Assembly: GCA_000146465.1 (NCBI GenBank)
Contig: CP001952.1
Direction: 5' to 3' (one strand)
DNA: 64,000 bases
In this document: piece after piece, positions 12,396 to 47,176 of the stretch
How positions within the stretch are numbered: position 1 is the first letter of the stretch
How the letters are laid out: each line of letters opens with the position of its first letter
The notes under the pieces: model-generated
The model's database searches: none
Seen by the model: the letters and a program-made list of their open reading frames with translations, nothing else
What the model was told of the DNA's origin: nothing
Translations under genes and position numbers: made by a program

Positions 12396-12937
12396 ATGAT
12401 GAGAACAACATTCAAGACTCTATGCCTTCTTCTCACCAACATCTTGTTGCTACTATCCAGCTGTGTTCTCGGAGCACTAATATCCTCAATCCCAAACTCC
12501 AAAAGCATATACAAGAATGCAAATATACAGATCACTTACATGCTCCTTCTTGCAAATGCAGGCCTTTCTCTTTTTACTTTTGTGATAGTTCAGAACCTCA
12601 ACGATGTATTTCTTCACAGGGCAAGGTCTCCAAGAGGTGTTGAGACGAAGATGAAGATCCAATGGATAATTCTCTCGATAGTGACGTTTTTTTTCGGGGT
12701 CTTCCACTTGCCACTAATTACATCCAACACAGAGAAGTTTCTCAAAATGGACATCATGGCCTTAATGACTGCCACGATCTTAGCTCTACAAGTAAGTGAA
12801 AAAGTTAATTTTAGATTGTTATGCTCTTCATTGTATACTCCATGCATCCAGACTTGTTTGGAATCAAGTATAACCGAGAGATTCGGAACTATGTGGAAAG
12901 ACTTGAAGCAGAGTCTAGTAGGGAAAACAGGATGTGA
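12396..12937 (+). CDS. Small 4-TM membrane protein, proposed two-exon gene: join(12396..12791,12815..12937)
   Basis: The unspliced ORF 12396..13007 ends in a Cys-rich junk-like tail. Removing the 23-nt GTAAGT...TTTTAG element gives MALMTATILALQ|IVMLFIVYSM, a continuous 4th TM helix, followed by a short charged tail and a stop at 12935-12937. Confidence 0.4.
12792..12814 (+). other. Candidate 23-nt spliceosomal intron (gtaagtgaaaaagttaattttag)
   Basis: 5' GTAAGT at 12792-12797, a possible branch region ttaatttt, and a 3' AG at 12813-12814. The 23 nt is not a multiple of 3, and splicing restores a plausible membrane-protein reading frame. Confidence 0.4.
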
Positions 12938-13046
12938 CAGCAGGCTTTTACAAACAATATCCTTTAAGAATAAACTTCGTTTTACTCCTATTTACAGGAA
13001 CTTTTAGAAAGAGAAGATCCGAGGCTTTATTGGATAAACACATACT

Positions 13047-13295
13047 TTAGGTACTATGCTTCTCATCCATTTTCCTCTTTATCTTTGATAGGAAGTCACG
13101 ACACTTGAGAAGATCGCTCACCGGTAACCTGAAGGAGTTCCGGTCCATCTCTCTCATCACAGTACGTATCTTCTTTCCAATGTTCATTCTGTACTTTTCC
13201 TCTCTTACTCCAAAGTCCTCCCCACAGGTCCCTATCAATGCCATTTGGGAATTCAGTGTCATGAAGTTGTTGTGGCTCATCATGTTAAACTGCAA
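13047..13295 (-). CDS. Small hypothetical protein, 82 aa
   Basis: Compact ORF divergent from the reductase gene across a 250-bp AT-rich spacer. No family recognised. Confidence 0.3.
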   Translation of the reverse strand: MQFNMMSHNNFMTLNSQMALIGTCGEDFGVREEKYRMNIGKKIRTVMREMDRNSFRLPVSDLLKCRDFLSKIKRKMDEKHST

Positions 13296-46362: not shown

Positions 46363-46411
46363 CATCCCCATGCTTCCTTCAACTAAATCTAGATTATATC
46401 TTATATTTTAT

Positions 46412-47176
46412 TTACATTTTACTTGGATTGACCTCGGAAACCACAAACCTTTTCATCTGACTCACCAAACTCGTAGATACATCAACATCACAAGATTCAA
46501 AGTCCCTTTCGTCGTTGGAGCAATCTCCAGACGACTCGGATCTGTCAAGAATCTTTGTGCTGTATTGCCTCACTCTCCTTCGTCTCTTAAACTCCTCTTT
46601 GGACAGGAATTCGTGGTCAAGCATCCATTTTCCTCCCTTTCCCCGTGTCCCTGGATCCCGAGGAACCTTCTTGAAACACTTGTTTAGAGACAGGTTGTGC
46701 CGTATGGAGTTCTTCCACACCGGATTTGCATATCGATAGTATTCAAACGAATCCTCAATCCACTTGTAAATCTCGCTAAGCGTGAGCTTTCCAGTCTTGC
46801 TCGTCCTTATGGCTCTCGTTATTATCTGTGCATACGAGAGAGAGGGCTTTGCTCTTAGGACATCGCAACCACCGAATTCTCTTGTCTTTTCTTCTTCCAC
46901 ATTCTCGTCCATCTCCTTCATTTCCAGGAAGTTACCGTAAAGACTTCGAGGATTTATCCTTGCATCGGGGCTTGAAGGCCTCATTCTATTCTCCATAAAT
47001 CTCATGTAGAACCTGTGGATAGCACTTTCTCCCTCAACCTCCTGTTCCAGGAACTCCCATAGAGAGGACTCTGCTTTTCCTCCTTCTTCCATACACAAGT
47101 CTTTTACATCCTGGTCCATATCCGACTCCAGAAGCTCTGTGTCCAAAAGATCCTGGAAGGTCGTGCTCCAGCTCAT
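46412..47176 (-). CDS. Forkhead-box (FOX) transcription factor
   Basis: [78 protein letters not shown] is a canonical winged-helix forkhead domain (KPPYSY..LI..AI......LTL..IY.FI...FPYYR.....[18 protein letters not shown]....PGKG.YW.LD). Confidence 0.8.

Follow-up and report, generated by a model that had tools for sequence, protein, structure and literature searches.

The 23-nt element at positions 12792..12814 (+) of the window, by which we mean the whole 64-kb stretch of DNA that was analysed, is very probably a genuine U2-type mini-intron in the Encephalitozoon intestinalis orthologue of E. cuniculi ECU11_1060. This reading is built on sequence comparison: on the splice signals and their conservation, on the coding constraint in the spliced frame, on the loss of the element in one relative (locus L001) and on the spliced gene models of sister species. 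The window belongs to chromosome 11 of E. intestinalis, and the proteins flanking the gene, a dipeptide/tripeptide permease (ADM12592) and a superoxide dismutase (ADM12596), are exact matches of E. intestinalis ATCC 50506, in agreement with Pfam. The intron is already known, in that its orthologues are annotated in three sister species (E. cuniculi GB-M1, E. hellem and E. romaleae), and our result is a gene-model correction, not a discovery.

The first-pass annotation, made from the letters of the window, had described a 23-nt element at these positions with a GTAAGT 5' site, a 3' AG and a frame-shifting length, and this description is exact (GTAAGTGAAAAAGTTAATTTTAG). The spliceosomal intron is in phase 0. 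Its 5' splice site GTAAGT lies at 12792..12797, its branch-point motif TAATTT (TAAYTT) at 12806..12811 and its 3' splice site AG at 12813..12814, all on the plus strand. The branch adenosine is presumably A12808, 7 nt upstream of exon 2, by analogy with CTAAY. Exon 1 (12396..12791, +) comprises 132 codons, from ATG to ...ILALQ, and codes for TM1-TM3, the invariant IVQNLNDVFL.R..S.RGVE.K.K loop and the first half of TM4. Exon 2 (12815..12937, +) comprises 40 codons and a TGA stop (12935..12937); the remaining half of TM4 is encoded here, together with the invariant HPDLFG motif and an amphipathic tail that is charged. Excision joins 12396-12791 with 12815-12937 into the reading frame of a 172-aa protein. 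At the junction, the spliced product reads ...TATILALQ followed by IVMLFIVYSMHPDLFGIK..., passing from CAA (Q132) to ATT (I133), and the nucleotide junction is ...GCTCTACAA/ATTGTTATG... (also written GCTCTACAA/ATTGTTATGC; here and below the slash marks a junction). The intron interrupts the coding sequence 77% of the way through, within TM4, and its retention shifts the frame (23 mod 3 = 2).

When the element is left in place, the open reading frame runs from 12396 to 13007 and encodes 203 aa. The Kyte-Doolittle profile of this product shows three TM segments and, after them, a hydrophilic, Cys-rich tail (VSEKVNFRLLCSSLYTPCIQTC...), in line with the earlier description. A fourth hydrophobic segment, MDIMALMTATILALQ/IVMLFIVYSMHP, with a Kyte-Doolittle maximum of 2.44, is found in the spliced product only, so that the fourth TM helix and the charged tail ending at 12937, both of which had been proposed to follow from removal of the element, are confirmed. 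The gene starts with ATGATG. The first of these two codons (12396) is the one that matches the initial M of the conserved MIRTTF start in all orthologues, and the public 202-aa model begins one codon later, at the second ATG (12399).

The combination of signals is rare by chance. Over both strands of the 64-kb window, the pattern GTAAGT-N5-30-TAATTTYAG has a single occurrence, against an expectation of 0.01 from 100 dinucleotide shuffles of the window. Looser scans, with and without a flanking-ORF requirement, yielded no second credible intron in the window, in line with what had been noted at first reading. The remaining loose-scan matches were rejected because they were antisense to or inside well-supported ORFs, or lacked the motifs. 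One loose match of 83 nt, GTGAGT...TAATCTAGATTTAG, is located at 46383..46465 (-), 17 codons before the stop of a 254-aa ORF (46412..47176, -), and its splicing would add 76 codons to the frame. It is probably a chance match, as it has no TAAYTT and exceeds every known E. cuniculi intron in length.

The homology search recovered 11 relatives. Ten of them align to no more than 77% of the spliced query, i.e. up to the junction, where they read LQVS(G/E)..NFR, which is GTA-AGT...AAT-TTT-AGx translated straight through. We compared the DNA of 10 loci from Encephalitozoon, Ordospora and relatives derived from SRA data (L001, L007, L008 and L009, from SRR21023573, ERR13636775, SRR12358676 and SRR29713750, respectively). 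The gene directly follows the PTR2 permease in all 10 loci; in those Encephalitozoon/Ordospora loci whose sequence reaches far enough, it precedes a short-chain dehydrogenase (SDR) and then, where in range, the Mn/Fe-SOD. The element is present at the same phase-0 site in nine orthologous loci, with lengths of 23, 25 or 26 nt. The 23-nt copies are those of E. cuniculi (L002, GTAAGTGGAAGTATTAATTTTAG), E. hellem (L010, GTAAGTGGAAAAACTAATTTTAG), L005 (also GTAAGTGGAAAAACTAATTTTAG), L006 (GTAAGTGGAAAAGCTAATTTTAG), L009 (GTAAGTGGATGCCGTAATTTCAG) and Ordospora colligata (L003 and L004, GTAAGTGAAAGTATTAATTTTAG), while L007 carries a copy of 25 nt (GTAAGTGAAGAGGTAATAATTTTAG) and L008 one of 26 nt (GTAAGTGAAGAAAAAAATAATTTTAG). 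GTAAGT, TAAYTT and AG are invariant in all nine, the 5' site being identical throughout, and the spacer differs in both sequence and length. In three of the nine introns the branch-point motif occurs as CTAATTT. The extra bases of the longer copies (L007:962-986 and L008:1897-1922) are confined to the spacer between GTAAGTGA and the TAATTTTAG block of branch point and 3' site. This pattern indicates that the spacing of branch point and AG would be fixed, and that at least 3 extra nt would be tolerated between the 5' site and the branch point. Spliced in silico, the orthologues encode proteins of 164-181 aa with full-length identities of 48-79% and a common exon 2, ...(I/V)YSMHPDLFG.K......Y.ER.EA....

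The interval between the four-TM gene and the dehydrogenase holds a small conserved minus-strand ORF of about 76 aa, at 13047..13295 (-) of the window, with ATG 13280 as its probable start. It has an invariant DFGVREE.YR.N..KIR block and is called at the corresponding position of E. cuniculi, E. hellem, L005, L006 and L008; a Pfam search gave no match. This ORF is probably what the inserted locus tag ECU11_1065 denotes. The assignment of ECU11_1065 to the four-TM gene was considered and rejected, since the tag better fits this small downstream ORF.

The two readings of the region after the element were compared in 10 sequences, using the 96 nt after the AG, with the last 96 nt of exon 1 as a control. 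In the spliced frame, none of the 10 sequences contains a stop and the mean pairwise amino-acid identity is 56%; in the other two frames, stops occur in 6 of 10. Differences in the spliced frame fall on the three codon positions in the proportion 461:330:686, a third-position excess whose pattern equals that of the exon 1 end (605:436:852). The HPDxFG motif of exon 2 is invariant in the Encephalitozoon/Ordospora group, F147 included, and H143, P144, D145 and G148 are invariant across the whole family, Vairimorpha and Pancytospora among them; H, P, D and G make up 4 of the family's 11 invariant columns. Judged from these comparisons, coding constraint is confined to the spliced frame.

These results bear most directly on the possibility that no splicing takes place and that the gene encodes a co-linear protein of 202/203 aa whose three TM helices are followed by a soluble tail rich in Cys. 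In E. intestinalis the frame does stay open for 71 further codons, to 13007, and the co-linear form is used by three independent annotations of the species. The tail, however, is clearly not conserved among the orthologues: the read-through tails measure 8, 8, 25, 34, 35, 48, 71, 80 and 181 aa, the two shortest being those of E. hellem and L005 and the longest that of Ordospora, with other relatives at 25-80 aa. Because the intron is 23, 25 or 26 nt long, the read-through frame cannot be conserved, and read-through of the 25-nt copy in L007 indeed enters a different frame from that of the other loci. The likeness YTxCIQTC seen among the tails is simply the constrained YSMHPDLFG exon read out of frame. 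As for the annotations, the E. intestinalis models we found are all unspliced, namely Eint_110930 (118 aa) of the ATCC 50506 reference, which starts at an internal Met, and the 202-aa GPK93_11g20600 / P7C65_11s1g18890, which is matched in three newer E. intestinalis isolates. The pipelines used for the T2T and draft-isolate genomes relied on Prodigal calls, to which "introns were manually added" (PMC10158259, PMC12697097), and the unspliced models are probably due to this procedure; the same group spliced the E. hellem gene. We therefore consider a co-linear protein very unlikely.

A different kind of evidence comes from a relative in which the element is missing. In L001 (Logan assembly SRR21023573) the DNA at the junction reads cttcag/tctgcc, and the protein is residue-for-residue co-linear with the spliced products of the other loci, which confirms the 3' splice junction assigned above. 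Distant homologues were recovered by an exhaustive HMMER search with L001 as query in Vairimorpha necatrix, V. apis, Pancytospora philotis and further assemblies. They are 150-177 aa long and 27-31% identical, and all are single uninterrupted ORFs that are co-linear across the junction without a gap. Removal of the 23-nt element thus restores a conserved frame that is common to the intron-free homologues of L001, Vairimorpha and Pancytospora.

Two other ways of joining the frames can be weighed against these sequences. Programmed ribosomal frameshifting or bypassing might be suspected from the G-AAA-AAG run in the E. intestinalis element, which resembles a slippery site, but the run is not conserved (E. 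cuniculi has GTGGAAGTATT and L009 has GTGGATGCCGT), the shift needed would differ between the 23/26-nt and the 25-nt copies, L001, Vairimorpha and Pancytospora, which are gapless at the junction, lack the residues that such a shift would insert, and the conserved positions are exactly the splice signals; we find this explanation scarcely credible. Equally little credence can be given to an intron that begins at the second GT (GTAA/GTGA...) and removes 19 nt, as is implied by the E. hellem model KMI_09g14370 (P0009, 115 aa, gene span 367 nt). The exon 2 frame so obtained has stops in 6 of 10 orthologues and does not contain HPDLFG, the 5' site would be GTGAAA or GTGGAA instead of the GTAAGT consensus, and the loss in L001 matches the full 23-nt unit. 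In KMI_09g14370 itself (GCA_018342045.1), the splice is placed at L010:1757-1775, again from the second GT (GTAA/GTGG...), and the model starts at an internal Met; its C-terminus (LQVNSHALYHILNAS...) is non-conserved, which shows that the splice site was mis-called. Finally, a frameshifted pseudogene or an assembly error with a coincidental GT...AG, an idea that a change of frame in a small gene of unknown function might invite, is effectively refuted by the comparative data and would be a most extraordinary coincidence, given that the 23-26-nt element has intact GTAAGT, TAAYTT and AG in nine independent assemblies of different species, that the third-position excess points to purifying selection on both exons, that invariant family residues lie downstream of the shift, and that the chance expectation of the motif is 0.01 per window. 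The reading as an Encephalitozoon-type spliceosomal mini-intron, which the first-pass annotation had proposed, is the one supported by the nine orthologous loci, the constraint on the spliced frame and L001.

The history of the intron can be considered from the same loci. In a PTR2 protein tree, all 200 NJ bootstrap replicates (100%) place L001 together with L008 and L009, both of which carry the intron, and the intron is also found on the other side of the PTR2 split (Encephalitozoon and Ordospora). Since L001 falls within an intron-bearing group, its state is that of a secondary loss, most parsimoniously explained by the precise removal of just the unit predicted here. Such a precise loss fits recombination with reverse-transcribed spliced mRNA (the model is summarised in PMC6349667). 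The L001 locus (L001:3001-3609, on a 111-kb contig) has an acetyltransferase, an ORMDL gene and an HRDC-domain gene downstream, in place of the dehydrogenase and SOD; its called ORF has a 31-aa N-terminal extension, which is probably spurious. It is conceivable, though rather unlikely in our estimate, that the intron was gained in the ancestor shared by Encephalitozoon and Ordospora, to be lost again, precisely, in the L001 lineage. In favor of a gain, V. necatrix, V. apis and P. philotis are uninterrupted at the site, and the far-3' position is unlike that of the 5'-biased relics. Alternatively, the intron may be ancestral and have been lost in Vairimorpha, Pancytospora and L001.

The spliced product is a microsporidia-specific four-TM protein. 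It gives a match to Pfam DUF5090 (PF17009) over residues 45-166, across the junction, with 19.3 bits (E = 0.0012), which is below the gathering threshold of 27 bits; the unspliced product gives no DUF5090 match. Sub-threshold matches were obtained for 7 of 10 orthologues (best E = 2.9e-4) and none for the distant homologues, and we take membership in DUF5090 as a hint only. AlphaFold was run with a naturally intron-free orthologue (P0006) as query. With read-through sequences in the alignment, the model had a pLDDT of 58.8 and a pTM of 0.35, with 41-44 in the TM4 region; with the spliced/co-linear alignment these values were 79.5 and 0.68, with 92-94 in the TM4 blocks. The confident model consists of four long helices and a C-terminal helix. 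A Foldseek search of this model against the PDB returned only generic helical bundles (best E = 0.26), and a profile search of PDB sequences returned nothing at E <= 1.

The annotation of this gene varies among the public records. The E. hellem protein PFJ87_11g01110 (UTX44373.1 / WEL39874.1), of 172 aa, is identical to our in-silico splice. For E. cuniculi GB-M1, ECU11_1060 is a spliced model in a revised record (CAD26016.2 / NP_001402251.1) of 181 aa, and CAD26016.2 differs by one residue from the in-silico splice of E. cuniculi ATCC 50602. Models spliced at the same junction are also found for E. cuniculi EcunIII-L (M970_111050), E. hellem (EHEL_110940) and E. romaleae (EROM_110930). On the other hand, an exact look-up in a collection of 15 billion proteins did not find the spliced E. 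intestinalis protein, as either 172 aa or 171 aa, and the intron is unmodelled in E. cuniculi ATCC 50602 J0A71_01g01280 (166 aa). It is also unmodelled in Ordospora colligata CWI42_120950 (L003:3001-3804, 267 aa), which starts at an internal Met and reads 181 codons past the intron, across the region that holds the small minus-strand ORF in other loci. The likely true start of this gene is at L003:2863, and its spliced model would be 170 aa. Neither ECU11_1060 nor ECU11_1065 is named in the accessible full-text literature, and ECU11_1060 does not appear as an intron-bearing gene in the supplements of PMC3629993, PMC6349667 and PMC8476143.

When compared with the microsporidian introns described so far, the closest counterparts are those of E. 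cuniculi ECU11_1060, E. hellem EHEL_110940/PFJ87_11g01110 and E. romaleae EROM_110930. These belong to the same gene, in synteny after PTR2, and occupy the same phase-0 site after the LQ codons; they are 23 nt long, with GTAAGT...(C/T)TAATTTTAG, and the spliced proteins are 72-79% identical to that of E. intestinalis. The differences are a few bases of the internal spacer and the fact that the E. intestinalis copy is unmodelled in the annotations found. E. cuniculi introns as a whole measure 22-76 nt, mostly about 25 nt, and are of GT-AG type with strict 5' and branch-point motifs (PMC3629993). Their consensus is (GT)AAGT and TAAYTT/CTAAYTT, with TAAYTT in all 13 bona fide introns analysed (PMC2483917), and retention adds a stop codon or a frameshift for every one of the E. 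cuniculi introns (PMC3629993). The element agrees with this description in every sequence character, having GT-AG ends, GTAAGT at six of six positions, TAAYTT 2 nt before the AG, a length within 22-76 nt and a frameshift on retention. The short E. cuniculi class (Katinka 2001; Lee et al. 2010; Grisdale et al. 2013) is likewise about 23-25 nt long and of GT-AG type, with GTAAGT and with TAAYTT beside the AG. The original members of that class lie just after the ATG, whereas the present element is unusually far 3' (77% of the CDS). It resembles the 20 introns added in 2010 in belonging to a non-ribosomal gene and in showing no 5' bias (PMC6349667). The long introns of the Poly-A-binding and S23 genes (Whelan et al. 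2019) are also spliceosomal and also retained in a highly reduced microsporidian genome, but they are about 76 nt long, have a conserved internal stem-loop and are about 80% spliced (PMC6349667), while the 23-nt element leaves no room for an internal structure and its spacer is unconserved.

By the proposed mechanism, U1 would pair with GTAAGT and U2 with the TAATTT branch motif, 7 nt from the 3' AG. The mature mRNA (12396..12791 joined to 12815..12937) would then encode the 172-aa four-TM protein with a short charged C-terminal helix, and transcripts that retain the intron would shift frame and give a three-TM protein with a non-conserved tail. For E. intestinalis itself we infer splicing from the comparative data; a scan of metagenome contigs returned no match to the exact spliced junction. 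On average, splicing removes short E. cuniculi introns from less than 20% of transcripts (PMC6349667), and for 30 of 37 introns the spliced fraction is below 50% of transcripts (PMC3629993), so that reads co-linear across 12792..12814 are to be expected and are not counter-evidence. By analogy with E. cuniculi, unspliced transcripts probably make up the majority of the RNA and would be non-productive.

The models for E. intestinalis, J0A71_01g01280, CWI42_120950 and KMI_09g14370 are faulty at the C-terminus, where half of TM4 is missing along with the invariant HPDLFG motif, and their correction would give the right sequence of a membrane protein that is conserved in microsporidia and specific to them. 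The way in which microsporidian splicing is currently understood is unchanged. The corrected models would lead to better intron counts for comparative work on intron retention in reduced genomes, and the precise loss in L001 adds one small, clean case to the study of intron loss. If the gain should prove true, the gene would hold a rare, datable pair of gain and subsequent loss in a genome otherwise dominated by intron loss.
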